Shown in pieces: positions 9,630 to 18,901 of a stretch of DNA of 26,915 nt. Source of the DNA: a virus. Taxonomy: Duplodnaviria > Caudoviricetes. Positions within the stretch are counted from its first letter, which is position 1; each line of letters begins with the position of its first letter. Made by a program: the position numbers and the translations under genes. Below the pieces are notes generated by a model. The model searched no databases and was not told the origin of the DNA. It saw only the letters and a program-made list of their open reading frames with translations. The stretch spans positions 1-26,915 of the IMG/VR virus record IMGVR_UViG_3300046656_000554. One strand, written 5' to 3'.

Positions 9630-12600
9630 ATGGCCTCGCCTCGCACACCGACCGGCCAGTACGAAAAAGGCACCAGCGGCAATCCCCGCGGTCGCCCACC
9701 TCGCGCCCGCCAGGACTCCGTGCCGACGGCTCTCGTCCGCACTCCGTCGCAGCCCGCTCCTACCCCCCGCCGCGACGGTTGGCAGAACGAAGCTTCCGGG
9801 CATGGGACGCGTCGAGATCGCCGCACCCTGACCCGTTTCGGCGTCGACATCGTCACCGATATCGAGGCGCTGCAGCTCTGGCGCTCGGAGTTCCTGGCCG
9901 CGACGATTATCGAGGGCGAGCCCAAGGAGGCTCTCAAGCGCGGATGGCGGTTCAAGTGCGAGGACAAGGATCTCGAGGTCGCGGTACTCAAGCGCGCCGA
10001 GGAGATCGGCCTGGAGCACGCACTCCGCAAGGCGGCCGAGTACGAGAACGCCTACGGCGGCTCGGCGATCTTTCCGGTGCTCACCGGAGCGCTTGGCGAT
10101 CTGAGCACAGAGCTCGACCCCGGCGCGATCGCCTCCGTCGATGCGTTCCACGTGTTCGAGCCGCAAGAGCTCTTGCCCAATACCTACTACAAGGACATCC
10201 GGCTGCCGAAGTGGCGACGGCCGGAGACCTACCGACTCATACCGCTGACCTCGGGTCGCAGTGGGTATTTCAATCCGCAGATCGTCCACGAGTCGAGGCT
10301 GATCATCTTCCCGGGCACTCGCGTCTCCGTGCAGACGCAGCCCGGCCAGCGTGAGGGCTGGGGCGACTCGAACCTGTGCCGCCCGCGTCAGGTGATTGCC
10401 GACTTCGGCCTGAGCTGGGCGTCGGCGGCGACGCTACTCCACGAGCACGGCAAGGGCACGCTCGAGATGGACAACTTCGCCAACATGATGGCGCAGGCCG
10501 ACGGGCTCGATCAGTTCGACAAGTACATCACCGCGATGCAGATGGCGTGGTCGACGATCGGTATGGTTGTGATCGACGGCAAGAGTCGATACAGCCGGTC
10601 GACGGGCGCGCTGACTGGGATCAGCGAGGTGCTGAACGAATTCAAGGTCCTCATGGCTGCCGCCGTCGGTCGCCCCGTTAGCACGCTATTCGGCCAGAGC
10701 CAGACAGGCCTGCGGACCGGGGACGACGACACGCTGAGCTGGAACGCGAAGGTCGAAGGCTATCAGGGCAAGCACCTTCGGCCACGGCACGAGCAGGCGG
10801 TGAAGCTGATCCTGCTCTCGACGGCTGGGCCGACGAATGGCCAGGAGCCCGAGGCGTGGAGCGTCGAATACCCGCCGATCTCGACACCGAGCGAGAAAGA
10901 GAAATCCGAGATCCAGCTTGCGGACATGCAGCGGGCGAAGATTGCGATTGAGACTGGAGTGGCGAGCAAGGATGACTGCGCGGAGAGCTTCTACAAGGGC
11001 GACAGCTATAGCGGGGACATCAAGATCGACTGGGAGCGGCGCAAGAAGGAGCAGGCGGAGGCGAAGCTGCGAGAAGCTCAGGCTGCGGCTCAGGCCGCTG
11101 GGGGCGCAGGCGCGCCGCCGGTGGCCGAGCAGGAAGATCTGAGTCCCGAGGAGCTGGCGGATCTGCAAGGGCTACAGGAGGAGTTCGGGACGTCCGATGG
11201 CCAGGAGCCCGACGATTCGGAACCGGACGACGAGGAGCCGGACTTCGGCGATGATGTTCCGGACGACGAGGATTTGGCTAACGACCACGAGCCGCGTACC
11301 GATGACTTGGGCGCGCAGGGCTACAACCCGTACCGGACCCATGGCGGGCAGTTCGGCTCAGGTCCACACAAGGCTAGACCCGGCGCCGGTGAGCGTCAGG
11401 CCGCAGCGGTCGCCAAGTCCACGGAGCGCGTCGGTAAGACCGGGGCGCGTGTCGAGCACTATGCGGGCAAGCTCGCCGAGTCGCACCAGGCGCGGCACGC
11501 GGCGATTGCAGAGACCCGCGGTGCGCTGGAGAAAGCCAAGGCGGCGGGTGAACTCGCTAGAGCGAAGCCGACAGCAAAGAACCTAAAGGCGGCCGAGGTC
11601 GCGACCAACAAGGCGACCCGGGCGCAGGCCAAGGTCGGCAAGCACGAAGCGGCGATCGCGAAGCACACGGATCTGCATGCCAAGGCAGTGGGCGCGCATG
11701 CGAAGTCAACGGAGGCGCATGCGAAGACGGTGGCGAAGGGGGCGGAGGTCAAGGCGGCGGGGAAGGCGAAGACTGAGAAGCCAGCGGCCAAGCCAGCCGT
11801 TGAGGCCAAACCGGCAGCGAAACCGGCTACGGCAGCACCGGCCAAGCCTGTCGATCCGAAGGCTGCCCACGAAGCTGCGGCCCGCGAATCCGTGACCAAG
11901 GCACAGGCATCGCTTGCGGCAATCAAGAAAGAGGGTGTCCTGGCCAAGGACGCGGTGGCGGACACGGACTTCACCAAGGCCAAGCAGCATTTGGCAAACA
12001 TCGATAAGCACCAGAACGAACTATCCGGCCACGTAGCCGCGGCCGAGGCTAGTGCGAAACAACATGGCGGTGCGGATCTGGCAGGTCATGTGAGTAAATC
12101 GCTGAGGGATGAGGATGGGCGTTCTGCTGTCGAGCAGGGCCAGCGTCTACATGGTCACGCAGAAGCGGAAATTAGGTTTGGTGAGGGCGATCAGAAACTC
12201 TCATACTCGCGACGTGCAGCCCCGGAACAGGGCGCACTGAAGGCGGGCGAGTATCGAGAGTCCGCCGAATCGTTCCCGAAGTCGTTGACCCTAGAGCAGA
12301 AAGTCGCCGTATCGAATTATACAGACCACAGCGATCACATCTTGAATCCGATGCTGCGACAGACGAAGGGACAGCCAGACTCGTCGGCCAAGATGTACGA
12401 GGGGTCTCAGGTTCCCGAGCATGTTCATCAGGAGCGGCTCGGGAAGCGTCGTGAGCGAGTCGGCGCCGAGCGGGACACCGACATGACGGTCGGTACCGAG
12501 ATGAAGCATCTCGATTCCGCAATCGCTTCCCACTCATTCGATCGCGACGTTACGGCATATCGCGTTCTCAAGGATGATGGAGGGAAGATCATGGGGAACC

Positions 12601-12872
12601 TTCAGGTTGGGTCTACGTTCCAGGATCATGGATATGTGTCCACGACATCGGATAGTAACTTCCTGAAGAAGTTCTACAGTGGAGATCCTCAGCATCGCGT
12701 AGATGTGCACGTTACAATCAAGGCGGGCAAGCCAGCGGCTCCGATCCAGGAACTTACGTCATTCAAGTCGGAGAAAGAGATCCTGCTTCCGCGAGGCAGC
12801 AAGTTCCGGGTGACTAAGATTGTCCCTGCTACAGAGACGGCCGCGCGGCAGGTTCACGTGGAGACCATATGA
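9630..12872 (+). CDS. DUF1073-type portal protein fused through acidic and Ala/Lys-rich linkers to a C-terminal VIP2/Alt-like ADP-ribosyltransferase
   Basis: Portal motifs RRDGWQNEASGHG, YGGSAIF, IVHESRLIIFPG, GWGDS, PVSTLFGQSQTGL. ART motifs YT..S..LN..LR, LDSAI, AYR (R978), GYVSTT (S1004), SEKEILLPRGSKFRV (E1048/E1050). Confidence 0.9.
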   Translation: MASPRTPTGQYEKGTSGNPRGRPPRARQDSVPTALVRTPSQPAPTPRRDGWQNEASGHGTRRDRRTLTRFGVDIVTDIEALQLWRSEFLAATIIEGEPKEALKRGWRFKCEDKDLEVAVLKRAEEIGLEHALRKAAEYENAYGGSAIFPVLTGALGDLSTELDPGAIASVDAFHVFEPQELLPNTYYKDIRLPKWRRPETYRLIPLTSGRSGYFNPQIVHESRLIIFPGTRVSVQTQPGQREGWGDSNLCRPRQVIADFGLSWASAATLLHEHGKGTLEMDNFANMMAQADGLDQFDKYITAMQMAWSTIGMVVIDGKSRYSRSTGALTGISEVLNEFKVLMAAAVGRPVSTLFGQSQTGLRTGDDDTLSWNAKVEGYQGKHLRPRHEQAVKLILLSTAGPTNGQEPEAWSVEYPPISTPSEKEKSEIQLADMQRAKIAIETGVASKDDCAESFYKGDSYSGDIKIDWERRKKEQAEAKLREAQAAAQAAGGAGAPPVAEQEDLSPEELADLQGLQEEFGTSDGQEPDDSEPDDEEPDFGDDVPDDEDLANDHEPRTDDLGAQGYNPYRTHGGQFGSGPHKARPGAGERQAAAVAKSTERVGKTGARVEHYAGKLAESHQARHAAIAETRGALEKAKAAGELARAKPTAKNLKAAEVATNKATRAQAKVGKHEAAIAKHTDLHAKAVGAHAKSTEAHAKTVAKGAEVKAAGKAKTEKPAAKPAVEAKPAAKPATAAPAKPVDPKAAHEAAARESVTKAQASLAAIKKEGVLAKDAVADTDFTKAKQHLANIDKHQNELSGHVAAAEASAKQHGGADLAGHVSKSLRDEDGRSAVEQGQRLHGHAEAEIRFGEGDQKLSYSRRAAPEQGALKAGEYRESAESFPKSLTLEQKVAVSNYTDHSDHILNPMLRQTKGQPDSSAKMYEGSQVPEHVHQERLGKRRERVGAERDTDMTVGTEMKHLDSAIASHSFDRDVTAYRVLKDDGGKIMGNLQVGSTFQDHGYVSTTSDSNFLKKFYSGDPQHRVDVHVTIKAGKPAAPIQELTSFKSEKEILLPRGSKFRVTKIVPATETAARQVHVETI

Positions 12873-13129
12873 GCGATCGATCGGCGCATTACAGCTGGAG
12901 TCCGGACGACATCGTCGTAGATCCGCCGGGACAGGATTCCGGCCAATCTGCCCGCGCTCGCGTCCGCCAGTCCCTCGGCGATGTCGCGCACGCGATGAGC
13001 GACGCCGAGGTTGATGCGGTGATCGAGGCGGCGCGAGTCGATACGAACGGGGAAGGTGATTTGGCTCCTGAGGAGCTTGACGAAATCGACGCCCTCCTCG
13101 CCGAGTTCGGCGAATCCGATGACGAGTGA
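12869..13129 (+). CDS. Small acidic protein; candidate immunity/partner of the ART
   Basis: ATGA-coupled to the ART stop; EF-hand-like loop DTNGEGDLAPEE; C-terminus repeats a portal linker segment. Confidence 0.65.
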   Translation: MSDRSAHYSWSPDDIVVDPPGQDSGQSARARVRQSLGDVAHAMSDAEVDAVIEAARVDTNGEGDLAPEELDEIDALLAEFGESDDE

Positions 13130-14933
13130 ACTCCACTCCGCTTTGATCGTCGCTCGGCTCGCCGCTGACCTTGCGCGTCGCGATCCAACGGACGCCAACC
13201 GTCAGGCGGCACGGGATGCGGTGGCGGTGGTTGCGTACCGGGTCGATGCGGCCGGCTACAACCCGAACCGAGACAGCAAGGGGCGGTTCGCGTCGGGACC
13301 GCATCAGCAACGCGCGCCAAGCGCTGTCCCAGCCCATGTCGCCGCCCACGTCGAGCACACCGCCGGCCTGCGCAAGGCGGCCGAGGCGCGGCTAACTACC
13401 GCCAAGGCGGCGAAGATCGCTGCGGTCACGGAGGCCCGCGCGCGACTAGCCGTCGCCAGGGGCGCCGCCGAGGCGGCGCGAAAGAACCCGAGCGCAATCA
13501 ACGTGAAAGCGGCCAAGGTGGCCGCGCAGCACGCAGCTGCCGGTGCAGCGGTGGCCAAGCAGCACACCCAGACGGTCAGGCAGCACACGCTGGCGCACGG
13601 GGACGCGCGGGCAGCGCACATCGCGGCGAAGAAGCAGCTGAGCGAGGCGAAGCGAGGCGGTAGCCAAGTATCCGGTCACGGACTTCACACCGCGGCGAAT
13701 ACGGCCAGCGAGCATGCTCACAATGCCACACGTCGTGCATCCGAGACGCTTGAGGCCGGCGATCATCGAGCAGCGGCGCTTGCGCATGAGCATGCTGCGG
13801 CTGCGCACCTGGCTGCAGGTAATCGGACCGCCGCGGTCGAGCACAGCAACCACGCAAGCGATCACAAACGAAAGGCCGAGGCATCGGATCTTAGTGATCG
13901 CGCAGGAGAAGCGACCACCAAGGCGATTGTCTCGAAAAATGGAGCGGACCATGCATTAGCAGCGGAGGCGCACGAGCGTGCGGCCAAGGCGCACCGGGAT
14001 GCTGGGAGCAACGACGTTGCTGGCGATCATCATGGGTTGGCGGTTTTCCACAAGGTAGAAGCGGAAAAACTCAGCGAGGCACCGCGTCAAGTCGGCGACC
14101 CCAAGATCAGAAAGATCGCGACCGAAGATACAGGCAGGGCCGTGATCGCGCATGGAATTGTCGACCGCGTACATCATGATCCGCTCTACAACGATAGACA
14201 ATTATCCTCTGAGGCTCAGCGTGCTGTACGCGAGCATCATAACAAGGTACTTGCAGCGTACGGTCTGCACAATAAGGATGCTGGCTTGATTCACGCAGGC
14301 ACAGTCGAGGTGCGGACTCCAGAAGGGATGGCCGCGGGCGCTAATGGAATTGCCGCCGAAGGGCTGCATTGGAGACACGACGGCAAGATCGCATTGAACG
14401 TCGATCGGGCGGATGGGATGATGGAGCATTCTCGATTGGATTCAGATGGGCTACTGCGAGCAGGCCATGAATACTTTTCCTCCAAGAGTGCTCGTAGTGC
14501 CATCGATGCGTATCGTGTGTCTACCCACGAGGCGGTTCACGGTCACGGGCCCGATGTGATCAAGATTGGCCATGAGACCATGCTAGAGGAAATGAGCACC
14601 GAGATGGTGGCGCGGAAGATCACCGCAGATGTTCATGGGATGGACATTGATCGCGTTCAGGGTCACTACGGCGGGTATATCGATCCGACGGTGAAACATC
14701 TGGTGCGTATGTCGAACCCGGAAGGCTCGTCCGCCGCTTACACGAAGGCTCATGAGGCGCTCGCCCACGCCTCGCTGGAGTTCAAGCGCAAGTCCGGGCG
14801 GCAGCTGTCGCCCGCCATTGAGCTTCACGAAATCGGCGCCTCTGCCCTGAAAAAGTTAGGGGTGCACGATCCGGCGAAGCACATGGAACTATACGGACAT
14901 ATGGCCAACATCTCAGAGCGAGGCCCGCAGTGA
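13119..14933 (+). CDS. Putative virion-packaged effector: shared N-terminal module, His/Ala repeats and C-terminal HExxH zinc metallopeptidase (start re-called to 13119)
   Basis: RVDAAGYNPNRDSKGRFASGPH; GLHWRHDGKIALN strand; STHEAVH followed by LEEMSTE (gluzincin-like third ligand). Confidence 0.75.
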   Translation: MTSELHSALIVARLAADLARRDPTDANRQAARDAVAVVAYRVDAAGYNPNRDSKGRFASGPHQQRAPSAVPAHVAAHVEHTAGLRKAAEARLTTAKAAKIAAVTEARARLAVARGAAEAARKNPSAINVKAAKVAAQHAAAGAAVAKQHTQTVRQHTLAHGDARAAHIAAKKQLSEAKRGGSQVSGHGLHTAANTASEHAHNATRRASETLEAGDHRAAALAHEHAAAAHLAAGNRTAAVEHSNHASDHKRKAEASDLSDRAGEATTKAIVSKNGADHALAAEAHERAAKAHRDAGSNDVAGDHHGLAVFHKVEAEKLSEAPRQVGDPKIRKIATEDTGRAVIAHGIVDRVHHDPLYNDRQLSSEAQRAVREHHNKVLAAYGLHNKDAGLIHAGTVEVRTPEGMAAGANGIAAEGLHWRHDGKIALNVDRADGMMEHSRLDSDGLLRAGHEYFSSKSARSAIDAYRVSTHEAVHGHGPDVIKIGHETMLEEMSTEMVARKITADVHGMDIDRVQGHYGGYIDPTVKHLVRMSNPEGSSAAYTKAHEALAHASLEFKRKSGRQLSPAIELHEIGASALKKLGVHDPAKHMELYGHMANISERGPQ

Positions 14934-15124
14934 TTCGTTTCTTCGACATCGAGCCGAACAACATCGAGCAGGCGCTGGTCTACTACCGGCAGTGCGTAGA
15001 CGACGGCACTTGGAGCGCCGACAAGGCGCAGGCGTTGTGCCACAAGCAGGACGATCCCGATCCGCTTATCAGAGCGATCGCGGAGGTCAATGCAGCGGCC
15101 GGTGATACCGTAGGCGCGCCCTGA
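14930..15124 (+). CDS. Small protein; candidate immunity/partner of the metallopeptidase
   Basis: GTGA-coupled to the peptidase stop, 64 aa, acidic. Confidence 0.55.
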   Translation: MIRFFDIEPNNIEQALVYYRQCVDDGTWSADKAQALCHKQDDPDPLIRAIAEVNAAAGDTVGAP

Positions 15125-15161
15125 CACCGGCGGCCTGCGTCGCTGACCCCTGAGTGCTGAA

Positions 15162-15196
15162 TCGACCGTCTGGCCTGCCCGGCCGACCCTGACAGG
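15162..15196 (+). promoter_or_regulatory. Class-1 promoter-like motif
   Basis: TCGACC-N17-GACCCT-N6-GTG(15197). Confidence 0.7.
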
Positions 15197-16723
15197 GTGA
15201 GCAAGACGGTCTATCGTCACGATCGGAGCGACGGCGAGCTCAAGTCACCGACTACGACGTCGCAGGGCTTTCTGCTCGTTGACGGGCATCCGGCGCGCGC
15301 CGGGATCTACAAGTATCGCCGCGAAGACGGCTCGATCCAGTACGAGCGCCGGCCGCACGAAGAGGTGTTTCATCCCGACTCGCTGGCGAGCTACGACGAC
15401 GCACCGCTGACCCTCGAGCACCCGGCCGACGGTGAGGTCAACGCGGACAACGTCCGTCGCCACGAGATCGGCCATGTCAAGGGTCCCGGGCGGCAGGACG
15501 GCGATCGGGTCGCCACGACGCAGATCATCAAGGACGCCAAGGCTATCAAGATCGTCAAGGCTGGCAAACAGCAGCTCTCGCCTGGCTACAAGATCATCCT
15601 CGACGAGAAGCCGGGGTACGACGCGCGCTACGCGACGCCCGACAACCCGACCGGACGCTACGACGCGACGCAGACCCTGATCCGGGTCAATCACGAGGCG
15701 ATCGTCGACAGTGCTCGCGGCGGCGCAGGGATGCGGCTGCGAATGGATGGTGTTGAGATCCTGCTCGATGGGGAGATCCCAGCGGAGGAGGACCGCACCG
15801 ACGCTGCGGCACCCGGCACGTCGTACGACCTGAACAGATTCGCTGCCGATGCCTCGACTCGGGCCTCGGCAGCCACCCGCACCGCGCATACGCCGCCGGA
15901 GCACACGGCTGCGGCGCAGCTGCACCGTCATGCTAGCGTCGCGCAGCAGGCCGCCGGCGATACCGCCGCCGCCGAAGATCACCGGGCCCAAGCTGCGCAT
16001 CACCTGATCGAGGGTACGCGAGTCGCCGCGACGCACGCGACGGCGCAGGCCCGCAGTACCGGCAGTTACTCCGATCACATGGCTGCGGCAGCGGCGCACC
16101 ACGACGCGGCGCAGACCGCGCAGCACCACAGCAACGCCGTCCAAGGCGAGGAGCACACCCGTATGGCACGAGGACACGAGAACGCGGCAGCGGCTGCAGC
16201 CAGGGCCGGCCGTCGCGATACCGCCGACCGTGAATCTGGCCAGCGGGCTGACGCGGCGTCTACTACGGCCAACGCTACTGGCCGCGCGATCGATCATCGG
16301 CGCGCGGCACTGGCCCATCGAGACGCCGCGTGCCTCATGTCCAGGCTCGACTCCGGTGTCGCAGCCACGCACCGCGATCGCGCTTCAGCGCATACCCGTC
16401 TAGCCGATCGCGCGCTCGATGTCTCACGCCTCGACTCCTCGATCAAGCTGACCACGGCTGTCGACGGTCACCAGCACTCGGTCGATCTCGACCCCTGCTA
16501 CGGCTCGCGCATGGGCGGGTGTACCTCGTACTCGGTGAGCGATACCGAGAAAGCCGAGCACGGTCACACGCACGACTGGGTCCGGAACATGGACGGCACG
16601 ATCACGATCGCAATGTCCGAGGGTCACAGCCACGAGCTGCTCGACACCTCGGGCGTCGTCGGATACCCCTCGACGGCCGAGCTCCAGGCAGCGGCGGATT
16701 CCGCCGCCTCGACTCCCTCTTGA
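15197..16723 (+). CDS. DUF2213-type prohead maturation protease with His/Ala helical repeats and C-terminal GHxH repeats
   Basis: T.QGFLL...ARAGIYKY, EEVF..DSLASY..APLTLEHP, QLSPGY, YDATQ..IRVNHEAIV..ARGG...RLRMDG. Confidence 0.88.
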   Translation: MSKTVYRHDRSDGELKSPTTTSQGFLLVDGHPARAGIYKYRREDGSIQYERRPHEEVFHPDSLASYDDAPLTLEHPADGEVNADNVRRHEIGHVKGPGRQDGDRVATTQIIKDAKAIKIVKAGKQQLSPGYKIILDEKPGYDARYATPDNPTGRYDATQTLIRVNHEAIVDSARGGAGMRLRMDGVEILLDGEIPAEEDRTDAAAPGTSYDLNRFAADASTRASAATRTAHTPPEHTAAAQLHRHASVAQQAAGDTAAAEDHRAQAAHHLIEGTRVAATHATAQARSTGSYSDHMAAAAAHHDAAQTAQHHSNAVQGEEHTRMARGHENAAAAAARAGRRDTADRESGQRADAASTTANATGRAIDHRRAALAHRDAACLMSRLDSGVAATHRDRASAHTRLADRALDVSRLDSSIKLTTAVDGHQHSVDLDPCYGSRMGGCTSYSVSDTEKAEHGHTHDWVRNMDGTITIAMSEGHSHELLDTSGVVGYPSTAELQAAADSAASTPS

Positions 16724-16766: not shown

Positions 16767-17390
16767 ATGGACCCTCAAGAGCAGATTCGCTCGCTGAAGG
16801 AGCAGCTCGCCGCAGCCGAGGCGAAACTGCCCCCCGCCATGGACGCGGCACACAAGGAGGCGGTCCGCGCAGACGGCGCGGAAGCCACCATCAAGACGCT
16901 TCGGAGCGAGATCTCCGAGCTGCGCTCGCAGATCCAGGCCGCGACCCAGGTGGTCGAGACCGAGGCGATCAAGCGCGAGAAGGTTCGCGCCGACGCCGCC
17001 GAGGTCGAGGTGCGGCGCCGTGACGAGCAGTTCAAGGCCGCACTCGATGCGCGCGTGGGGCTCGAGCGGACCGCCTCGATCATCTTCCCCGATCTGAACA
17101 TGCGTGGGATGAGCGATCGCGAGATCGTCACCACGGTCGTCAAGCGGCTCGATGCGCAGCAGCCGTGTGGACCGGAGATCAGCGATGCATACCTGCGCGG
17201 CAGGTTCGACTCGCTGATCGATCTGCACAAGCGCAATGCTCGATCGCTGCAGCAGCTCGGATCGGTCATCACGCAGGACAACAAGGAGCGCGCCGACTCA
17301 CTCGATGAGCAGCGCCGCAAGTTCCGCGCGCAGGGGCTCGAGCCTCTGCCCAACAGCCGCGAAGCGCGGCTCGCCAATGGGAGGGCCTGA
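16767..17390 (+). CDS. Capsid scaffolding protein (coiled coil)
   Basis: Position between protease and decoration gene; heptad pattern; SDAYLRGRFDS resembles the usual C-terminal part of DUF2213 proteins. Confidence 0.75.
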   Translation: MDPQEQIRSLKEQLAAAEAKLPPAMDAAHKEAVRADGAEATIKTLRSEISELRSQIQAATQVVETEAIKREKVRADAAEVEVRRRDEQFKAALDARVGLERTASIIFPDLNMRGMSDREIVTTVVKRLDAQQPCGPEISDAYLRGRFDSLIDLHKRNARSLQQLGSVITQDNKERADSLDEQRRKFRAQGLEPLPNSREARLANGRA

Positions 17391-17923: not shown

Positions 17924-18901
17924 ATGTCCGCCATTCCAGAGAATCGACTCGACGCATCGGACATCGCGTTCCTGGAGCGCGAGCTCCGGCACGTCGATCC
18001 CGTCATCTACCCCACGTTGTTCGCCGGCCTGCTCGGCCGCAAGTACGTGCCGTTGATCGAGGGTATCTCGCCGCTCAAGGATGAGTACGCCTACCGGATG
18101 GCGACCATCAAGGGCGACGCGAAGCTCGGCGGCCCGAATGCCAACGACGCGACTGTGGTCTCGGTGACCTACGCCGAGTCCGTGTCGGCCATCAAGCAGA
18201 TCCCGGTGGCCATGAAGTGGACGATCCGTGAGCTCAAGCAGTCGGCGGCATTTGCCGGAGGCAAGCTCCAGGACGACACGATCCGCGCGGCAATGAGCGC
18301 GGTGGCGCGTAAGCGCGACAACATGATCGCGCTTGGGCTCACCGGAACGACGATCGGCGGCCTGCTCAACGCGACCGGCGTGCTCGCTACGACGCCGTCA
18401 ACGAAGACGGGCACCGGGGCCGGTACGGCCTGGATCCGGACCGTGCCCGTCGCGCCCGACGAGATCCTGGCGGACATCGCCAAGATCGTCGCGGATACGC
18501 GTGCGGCCCTGAACCAGGCGACGCAGTTGCCCGGCGGCGACGACATGCCGGCGTTCGCGCGCTGGGTGCTGCTGCTGCCGCAGGCGCAGTACACGTATAT
18601 CGCGCAGACGCCGCGATCGACGACGAGCGACAAGACGATCCTGCAGTGGGCTCTGTCGCAGAACCCCTGGCTGGAGTCGATCGAGGAGTGGTGGCAGTGC
18701 GACACTGCCGGCACCGGACCGACCACGCGTGCGATGCTGTACGTTCGGGATCCGATGTGCTGTGGCTGCGTGATCCCGGATGAGTGGTCGCAAGAGGCGT
18801 GGCAGTACGAAGGCCACAACATCGTGGTCCCGGCGAGTGGGAGCTGCGGCGGCACGGTTGTGAAGTATCCCGTTGCCTGCCGAACAATGGATGCGATCTG
18901 A
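17924..18901 (+). CDS. Major capsid protein, DUF2184/encapsulin-like HK97 fold (start re-called to 17924)
   Basis: GAGGAAG RBS; FLERELRHVDP.IY, WTIREL, GLLNA, GGTVVKYP..C...DAI. Confidence 0.9.
   Translation: MSAIPENRLDASDIAFLERELRHVDPVIYPTLFAGLLGRKYVPLIEGISPLKDEYAYRMATIKGDAKLGGPNANDATVVSVTYAESVSAIKQIPVAMKWTIRELKQSAAFAGGKLQDDTIRAAMSAVARKRDNMIALGLTGTTIGGLLNATGVLATTPSTKTGTGAGTAWIRTVPVAPDEILADIAKIVADTRAALNQATQLPGGDDMPAFARWVLLLPQAQYTYIAQTPRSTTSDKTILQWALSQNPWLESIEEWWQCDTAGTGPTTRAMLYVRDPMCCGCVIPDEWSQEAWQYEGHNIVVPASGSCGGTVVKYPVACRTMDAI

Follow-up and report, generated by a model that had tools for sequence, protein, structure and literature searches.

Among phages that package proteins together with their genome, the closest worked-out counterpart of the system considered here is T4, whose internal proteins IPI–III and Alt carry a capsid-targeting sequence (CTS) and whose protease gp21 cuts at L/I-x-E, with removal of the targeting signal (PMC9026906, in its accessible part). 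Here, we describe a junction of a different make in the head–tail operon on the + strand of a tailed virus (IMG/VR record IMGVR_UViG_3300046656_000554), the whole record of 26,915 bp being the window that was analyzed. The junction consists of the tripeptide pattern RxD, which behaves, in sequence comparisons, like the cutting site of the phage's own DUF2213 head protease, and of a short conserved peptide, the tag, of 11–17 residues and of the form [YF]NPx(R/H/QPR)DxxG[RK]F. It occurs twice in the window, once between the portal and an ADP-ribosyltransferase (ART) fused to it, and once in a stand-alone protein, Q. The comparisons presented below make it, in our judgment, somewhat probable that this junction marks enzymes for release by cleavage within the prohead and for ejection along with the DNA.

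The likeness to T4 includes a head-packaged ART, a short protease motif common to scaffold, capsid protein, and cargo (here RxD, through which the cargo shares the propeptide motif of the other two), the removal of propeptides, and ejection, in our case predicted from genes. The differences from T4, as described in the same source, are that the conserved peptide lies behind the cut, would be retained on the product, and spans phages with different site chemistries, that the cargo is portal-fused or arranged in cassettes, and that the site is predicted to be Asp-specific. The tag does not occupy the place of a removed N-terminal propeptide, since it lies after RxD and, in the portal fusion, internally; just the leader of Q (aa 1–43) has a CTS-like position.

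Effectors carried by head proteins form a second body of work, in which domains of the ART, metallopeptidase, InPase, 2H, Nudix, and BECR kinds, attached to portal or MuF, are predicted to be packaged and injected (PMC3482391, PMC5512222, PMC9503650). Our window resembles these portal-fused effectors and the polyvalent proteins of Iyer et al. in bearing an enzymatic effector on the portal within the head operon, with PF06381 and PF03496 in a single 1080-aa open reading frame (ORF) between the terminase and protease genes. It differs from the MuF-, portal-, and head-protease-fused effectors by the junction tag, by the predicted release by a prohead protease at a defined motif, and by stand-alone tagged cargo, none of which is described in the accessible parts of those papers. 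The MuF polymorphic toxins (PMC5576092, PMC12226406) likewise have a C-terminal effector that varies within the head module; the small immunity gene behind it has a candidate counterpart here in I2. Unlike them, the window is without MuF, its constant part is no more than a short tag, and the predicted inhibitor often forms one protein with the next cargo. Neither the portal fusion nor Q bears a MuF domain at its N-terminus, with no PF04233 hit in either and no tblastn match of six MuF domains in the window, and the main text of PMC5576092 contains no occurrence of "motif" or "cleav". Finally, E217 and Pam3 (PMC10329688, PMC9942802) share with the window phage the portal family, a long C-terminal portal extension, and a cement protein of the same Pfam family, and differ in that the accessible parts of the two papers report no cleavage motif or tag; in E217, aa 97–528 of the 765 of the portal were modelled and the first 65 aa of the capsid protein were unseen (PMC10329688). 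Portal- and MuF-fused effectors are thus already described, and the junction tag together with the RxD site of a DUF2213 protease is without a description that we could find in the literature, which was searched also with spellings of the motifs and mostly outside subscription papers and supplements.

Two copies of a three-part module

The operon runs from terminase-like genes through the portal–ART fusion, I1, Q, I2, the DUF2213 protease, the scaffold, and the cement protein to the major capsid protein. The features discussed are the following (window coordinates):

9630..12872, + strand: portal (PF06381, aa 79–437), acidic linker, RxD, tag, stalk, and ADP-ribosyltransferase in one protein of 1080 aa
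9636..9713, + strand: DUF5681-like portal leader with PRTPTGQY (9639–9662), upstream of RxD at aa 27 and 47
11118..11294, + strand: acidic linker joining the portal to the cargo, predicted to be disordered
11295..11303, + strand: RxD (RTD), predicted head-protease site 1
11319..11369, + strand: tag copy 1 (GYNPYR...GQF...GPH), which departs from the broad consensus
11385..11759, + strand: Ala/Lys/His helical hairpin stalk 1 (aa 586–710; predicted local distance difference test, pLDDT, mostly 80–90)
12264..12866, + strand: VIP2/Alt-type ART domain (PF03496, E 2.6e-19), with YR, STT, and EKE at the expected catalytic positions
12869..13129, + strand: I1, a small acidic ORF after the ART, candidate ART inhibitor
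13119..14933, + strand: stand-alone cargo protein Q, 604 aa, with hairpin leader, RxD, tag, stalk, His/Ala helical repeats, and HEXXH zincin-like domain
13122..13238, + strand: leader of Q, a helical hairpin homologous to the stalk turn, candidate loading peptide
13239..13247, + strand: RxD (RVD), predicted head-protease site 2
13254..13304, + strand: tag copy 2 (GYNPNRDSKGRF...GPH)
13332..13652, + strand: helical hairpin stalk 2 (aa 72–178)
14199..14930, + strand: HEXXH...E metallopeptidase-like cargo domain (HEAVH at 14526–14540), without a Pfam match
14930..15124, + strand: I2, a small ORF predicted to bind the zincin active site
15197..16723, + strand: DUF2213 head maturation protease (domain aa 20–181), with RxD on both sides and an RxD-rich Ala/His extension
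16767..17390, + strand: scaffold with five RxD sites
17945..17953, + strand: RxD at aa 8–10 of the major capsid protein

A preliminary description of the window had proposed that the portal fusion and Q share a module of about 130 aa that serves as a packaging or ejection signal. Both peptides on which it relied are exact translations at 11295–11369 and 13239–13304, both of its helix strings are found in the two proteins, and the similarity survives the pairwise alignment and shuffling that it had suggested as a check. BLASTP of the whole portal fusion against the whole of Q aligns 50 identical residues of 136 (E 5e-7), and the Smith–Waterman score of the module is 187, against averages of 58.9 for global shuffles and of 71.0 and 68.6 for shuffles within windows of 10 and 20 aa, respectively. 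Since none of 5,000 shuffles reached this score in any of the three schemes, global or windowed, an artefact of Ala/Lys composition is ruled out. The similarity also holds separately for the helix (score 127, 0/5,000 shuffles) and for the peptide (67, 0/20,000). Over 123 codons, the two copies agree at 0.55, 0.61, and 0.43 of the first, second, and third positions, the third being the most diverged, and no long near-identical DNA repeat was found between the two copies; for these reasons a duplicate made by assembly is ruled out, and the copies are, as judged from these comparisons, an old homology conserved at the protein level. The one DNA run containing the window sequence is a soil metagenome, and its contigs, a possible source of the record, show no alternative letters or joints at the window; no RNA run is listed as containing the sequence.

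What did not stand is the idea that the entire 130 aa form the signal. The module has three parts: the likely head-protease site RxD, the short and widespread tag, and a helical stalk that is family-specific, whose hairpin signature is found in 17 of 33 family instances and, among the matches listed, in 0 of 275 others (scanned with a stricter pattern, many of them with short flanks). The comparison indicates that the tag is older and wider than the Ala/Lys helix.

The PRTPTGQY near the portal N-terminus, previously taken as a related element, is present but opens a leader that resembles DUF5681 (PF18932), which neither of the tag profiles described below scores. The DUF5681 profile matches this leader at E 4e-4, below the Pfam cut-off in the window and above it in L001 and P0021, matches the small terminase weakly (E 0.006), and does not match the tag stretches. 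Unlike the tag, which follows cut sites, the DUF5681 leader precedes them and carries GxSGNPxGRP next; lying upstream of RxD at aa 27 and 47, the portal leader would be cut off.

RxD as a probable head-protease site

For the statistics of the site we counted 33 tag instances of the family, after dropping duplicates (P0001, P0003, P0014, L004, L012, L013, and L015) and two untagged portals. RxD lies 7–29 residues upstream of the tag Arg in all 33, with 10.7 expected from shuffling the same stretches, and has 11 different middle residues; other patterns occur in the same place 0–10 times (R..D 10, RD 8, K.D 0). When instances with alignable upstream sequence are clustered, 14 of 16 clusters have RxD (5.6 expected), and in the other two it lies across the boundary of the narrower stretch that was used.

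The motif is likewise enriched where a maturation protease is expected to cut, in scaffolds (56 vs 14.3±3.4 in shuffles), in portal leaders (36 vs 7.6), and in capsid N-termini (8 vs 1.5), where it falls within the first 30 aa of all eight capsid proteins examined. It is depleted in portal cores (9 vs 31.5±4.9) and in the capsid body (2 vs 7.1), and neutral in TerL (35 vs 30.4) and sheath (6 vs 6.2). In structure models, the portal sites at aa 27, 47, and 556 and both tags fall in unstructured stretches with pLDDT<50, and the site of Q ends its leader helix. De novo motif enrichment recovered R.D in the window and in L003, and E.R/RA in L033; it did not recover the signatures expected in L037 (E) and L041 (K), both of which rest on reading by eye. 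From these site statistics we infer that the DUF2213 protease would cut after RxD, and the proposal of the preliminary description that cleavage there would expose a conserved N-terminal peptide finds good support in the comparisons. A predicted Asp-specific site can in this way be assigned to a DUF2213 protease.

The protease of the window also carries an Ala/His helical extension (15794–16426), bracketed by RxD, that resembles aa 170–325 of Q (score 137; 0/1,000 shuffles) and is absent from the proteases of most relatives.

The tag outside the family and its probable role

A 36-position profile of the tag without RxD gave 55 matches among 1.84 billion representatives, 46 of them new; these matches hold 52 tag instances, 28 with RxD upstream and the rest after Lys- or Asn-type sites or the start Met. 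In IMG/VR, two scans with DNA patterns, which left the upstream residues unspecified, found at least 162 and at least 139 loci, and the distinct tag instances number at least 275; all counts given for this broad set, here and below, are among the matches listed. A profile made from unrelated IMG/VR tags alone finds the tag copy of Q (E 1.8e-7). Taken together, what precedes the tag is a K-, D-, N-, E-, R-, L-, or H-type site, 0–29 residues away, or the start Met, and the sites checked by hand are ExR (L033), LxE (L037), K (L041 and MW202897), N (L030), and E (archaeal provirus Pro-Nvie1). Before the H form of the tag, K stands at −1 in 139/168 and V, I, or L at −3 in 127/168, and cutting at Lys is a usual trait of HK97-type proteases. 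For 29 of 75 loci, the residue just ahead of the tag agrees with the site signature enriched elsewhere in that locus (17.4 by permutation; 0/10,000).

This variety of sites bears on the possibility that the tag is a mere hinge, that is, an extended recognition element of the protease and a shared point of homology for effector swaps, like the pre-toxin motifs of polymorphic toxins. We regard this as improbable: swaps do fall downstream of the module, DNA likeness is retained between its two copies, and genes for predicted cognate inhibitors follow the effectors as in polymorphic toxin loci, but the same tag stands behind all these site types and distances, most sites (those of scaffold and capsid) have no tag, and the third codon position is the most diverged.

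The tag is carried by portal, MuF, protease, or stand-alone genes, and ART, zincin, kinase, and GNAT domains lie behind it; it closes the portal of Pro-Nvie1, and in MW202897 it is found in both portal and protease. Considering the 138 tag-bearing ORFs from loci with full flanks, a portal, MuF, protease, or capsid domain is present in 50, a tail domain in none, and only effector-type or non-structural domains (mostly ART, Zeta, kinase, Nudix, papain, and topoisomerase IB) in 34, while 54 have no Pfam match at all. Of the 52 loci without a carrier, 32 were sampled, and 20 of these have a head gene within 4 kb. Up to four tags occur per ORF, one before each unit of a polyprotein.

These contexts weigh on the question of whether the peptide directs encapsidation or ejection, which had been left as alternatives. 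A tag that, alone or with its site, binds scaffold, portal, or inner shell as a CTS-like loading signal and has no role in ejection seems to us rather unlikely. It would account for cargo in which the tag comes directly after Met (P0047, P0059, P0068, and arrays in L024 and L025) or after a leader of merely 5–10 residues ending in the site (P0034, P0046, L067, and L094), since little else could load such proteins, and the lack of a MuF gene in the window is in line with it. Against it, the tag is kept in ORFs whose portal, MuF, protease, or capsid domain is already in the head, and again before each polyprotein unit; moreover, the T4 signal precedes the cut and is removed (PMC9026906, accessible part), whereas the tag would stay on the product. 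Because 50 of the 138 ORFs already have such a carrier, and because the tag survives changes of protease chemistry, ejection or another handling after maturation fits better than encapsidation, even if the two roles could coexist.

Binding of the packaged DNA by the tag and basic stalk, so that the genome drags the cargo out, is in our estimate likewise improbable. The stalk, where the family has one, is 20–36% K/R/H and comes after an acidic linker, RxxxGxF is also found at the start of the DUF5681-like leaders in both portal and small terminase, and the T4 internal proteins are basic (PMC9026906, accessible part). In the broad set, however, the tag and the 19 residues after it have a mean net charge of +0.14, the linker behind them is 63% G/A/S/T, the stalk signature is missing, and the DUF5681 leader remains unscored by the tag profiles.

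We propose the following process. The cargo either extends the portal at its C-terminus or comes after a removable leader, and would enter the prohead in this form; the C-terminal part of the E217 portal, also of PF06381, projects into the head (PMC10329688, accessible part). The DUF2213 protease would then cleave behind RxD, which would take off the leaders of scaffold, capsid, and portal and release each cargo unit; after 0–25 small residues, such a unit would start with the disordered tag. Since even units already provided with a carrier retain the tag, it would act after cutting, most likely as the leading end through the portal–tail channel. ART and zincin may act on host targets early in infection, as expected from the families of T4 Alt and of MuF and portal effectors. 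The small downstream ORFs are predicted cognate inhibitors that would protect the producing cell and, where they are fused ahead of the next cargo, would also chain-load it.

Several findings weigh against cutting and ejection as set out here. The concordance of site classes is modest and comes mainly from K and N, with R, E, and L giving no clear signal; several RxD lie inside the protease domain itself, and in cargo domains the motif is only weakly depleted (39 vs 49.6, P 0.07). Among the broad set, 12 of the 32 sampled loci have no head gene nearby, two tag ORFs lie among tail genes (L047 and L253), and fewer than 60 residues follow the tag in 6/275. The tag copy of the portal is missed by the independent IMG/VR profile, this divergent copy being linked to the tag set via the family profile, and homologous tag instances are not independent. 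Untagged effectors exist, namely an RxD-InPase on portal P0023 and a Q-type zincin on MuF in L014 and L018, so that the tag is not universally required, and sequence cannot separate ejection from loading.

If the ejection role is correct, its interest is that the T4 signal explains loading and not exit, and a tag on the matured cargo would be a handle on which head proteins leave with the DNA. With the tag present across unrelated portal and protease families, loading, cutting, and ejection can be told apart by three point mutations. Also, since it shows where effector domains begin, the tag can help to split unannotated head polyproteins into units.

Pfam had a relevant match in 0/23 tag stretches; no informative match to the tag or module was found in Pfam, NCBIfam, PDB sequences, Foldseek, or Atlas, and the tag profile had no match in one Kofleriaceae genome. 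A G-prefixed pattern run on 596 Gb of cell genomes gave nine matches, about 4.3 being expected by chance: five outside any tag-bearing ORF, three in Chloroflexales loci, and one (L023) in an ORF that is short and doubtful. A match in a Caulobacter phage was dropped, as it is antisense to an annotated gene.

Some loci deserve separate mention. In Chloroflexales, L025:2–10586 (−) and L024:455–6662 (+) are arrays of small genes that read Met, a few residues, and tag, interleaved with ParB-methyltransferase-like genes (three in L025 and two in L024), and the L025 array adjoins a small-terminase gene. At L037:1743–5940, a second repeated tag, HPGHPDQSVH, follows LLE at the head of several units of a 1241-aa polyprotein and of its neighbour, the units lying between portal and MuF next to GRF-type tags. 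In L137 and L158, a GRF tag comes after ELYH, a His-ending site. At L043:3783–5799 (FR725450.1), the portal of an archaeal provirus ends with the tag and overlaps a RelA/SpoT-like gene that is read in another frame; this may be a fusion that was split or frameshifted. In the window, about 20 bases at both tags (11303–11321 and 13245–13265) match two separate places of one 15.7-kb contig (run X1), perhaps another tagged element in the sample, or chance.

Exchangeable cargo, leaders, and small downstream genes

Protein searches, each of which scored 8,000 candidates, gave 21 portals including that of the window and three stand-alone relatives of Q; direct locus searches with single proteins found nothing, and an alignment search retrieved the loci. 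When the fused domains were tabulated, as the preliminary description had suggested, 19 of the 21 portals were seen to continue with acidic linker, RxD, tag, and swappable cargo: 13 ART, three zincin, one kinase, one with two GNAT units, and one unknown. These portals have, therefore, a variable C-terminal effector on a constant N-terminal part. The other two have no tag, P0018 and P0023, the latter with RxD and InPase. P0007 and P0008 share 98% identity across the 658 aa that make up portal and module and then diverge into zincin vs kinase, and in the portal tree (31 rows; near-duplicate loci, L008, and L009 left out) zincin appears at four separate places among ART-bearing portals. The sole named relatives are two loci of Kofleriaceae metagenome-assembled genomes; they lie outside the tag-bearing clade on long branches, for which reason they indicate a host in Myxococcota only weakly.

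The portal-fused domain of the window is by its motifs an ART of the R-S-E (Alt/VIP2) type, with YR at aa 977, STT at aa 1004, EKE at aa 1048, and PF03496 above its cut-off. In the zincin-like domain, the HEXXH and downstream Glu are present, the H, E, H, and E being invariant in 19/19 aligned sequences. The start of Q is most likely the ATG at 13119 (604 aa, P0001), and the model of whole Q has a predicted template modelling score (pTM) of 0.39, with no PDB Foldseek match at E<=0.001.

Tagged units also stand between portal and MuF, three in L001 and two each in L003–L006, and none in L007, L010, L011, L014, L018, L019, and L020. The portal-to-protease stretch of the window (12869–15196) is without MuF, and a MuF-like gene is found there in 11 of the distinct related loci with enough sequence. 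At L011:7802–9301 and L019:11513–12874, MuF has an InPase-like domain between RxD sites and no tag (Pfam hit for L019).

The 40-residue leader of Q is a hairpin homologous to the stalk turn (1 and 0 of 5,000 shuffles) and is kept in P0002, P0024, P0025, and L003–L006. I1 combines a WxPxD-type head like the leaders of tagged cargo (P0038 and P0069), an RxD, and a tail like the acidic linker of the portal. I2 is homologous to the leader of the gene after the tagged zincin in L001, L003, L004, and L005 (4/4, L003 and L004 being near-identical), and its profile finds nothing behind the zincins that are fused to MuF in L014 and L018. Folding the zincin domain, zinc, and I2 together gave an ipSAE of 0.95, the best of three controls reaching 0.04; the mark is reached by 116/157 solved and 2/215 mismatched pairs, a calibration made rough by the use of our own alignments and a ligand. 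The runs agree to >=97%, the partner has a pLDDT >=93, and the contacts include the invariant H114, E131, and Y157. In these models I2 is predicted to be a cognate inhibitor that plugs the zincin active site.

I2 stands alone in the window, and in relatives an I2-like domain is fused via a linker and RxD to the next tagged cargo, which suggests that the leader would tether this cargo to the previous one until cleavage, i.e., chain loading. From here we arrive at a broader and distinctly tentative picture, doubtful as a whole: bacterial and archaeal tailed viruses may share a portable N-terminal ejection signal unmasked by their own head protease and, in this lineage, a daisy chain in which each leader inhibits the previous effector. 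The inhibitor-leader would dock on the portal-anchored chain and silence it in the producing cell, and a single round of RxD cleavage would release and arm all cargo. Such a predicted inhibitor-leader would join immunity and packaging in one domain.

Scans of the window for promoters and terminators stayed at chance level, and the capsid protein has no PDB sequence match. At L041:5155–7119 (−), the C-terminal part of a tagged cargo matches a phage RNA polymerase family (phrog_414, E 6e-9). L003:7829–8755, L004:7140–8351, L005:7896–8822, and L006:5272–6483 are each a separate gene, upstream of the portal, whose C-terminal domain is scaffold-like (E ~1e-12) and which may offer cargo another loading route.

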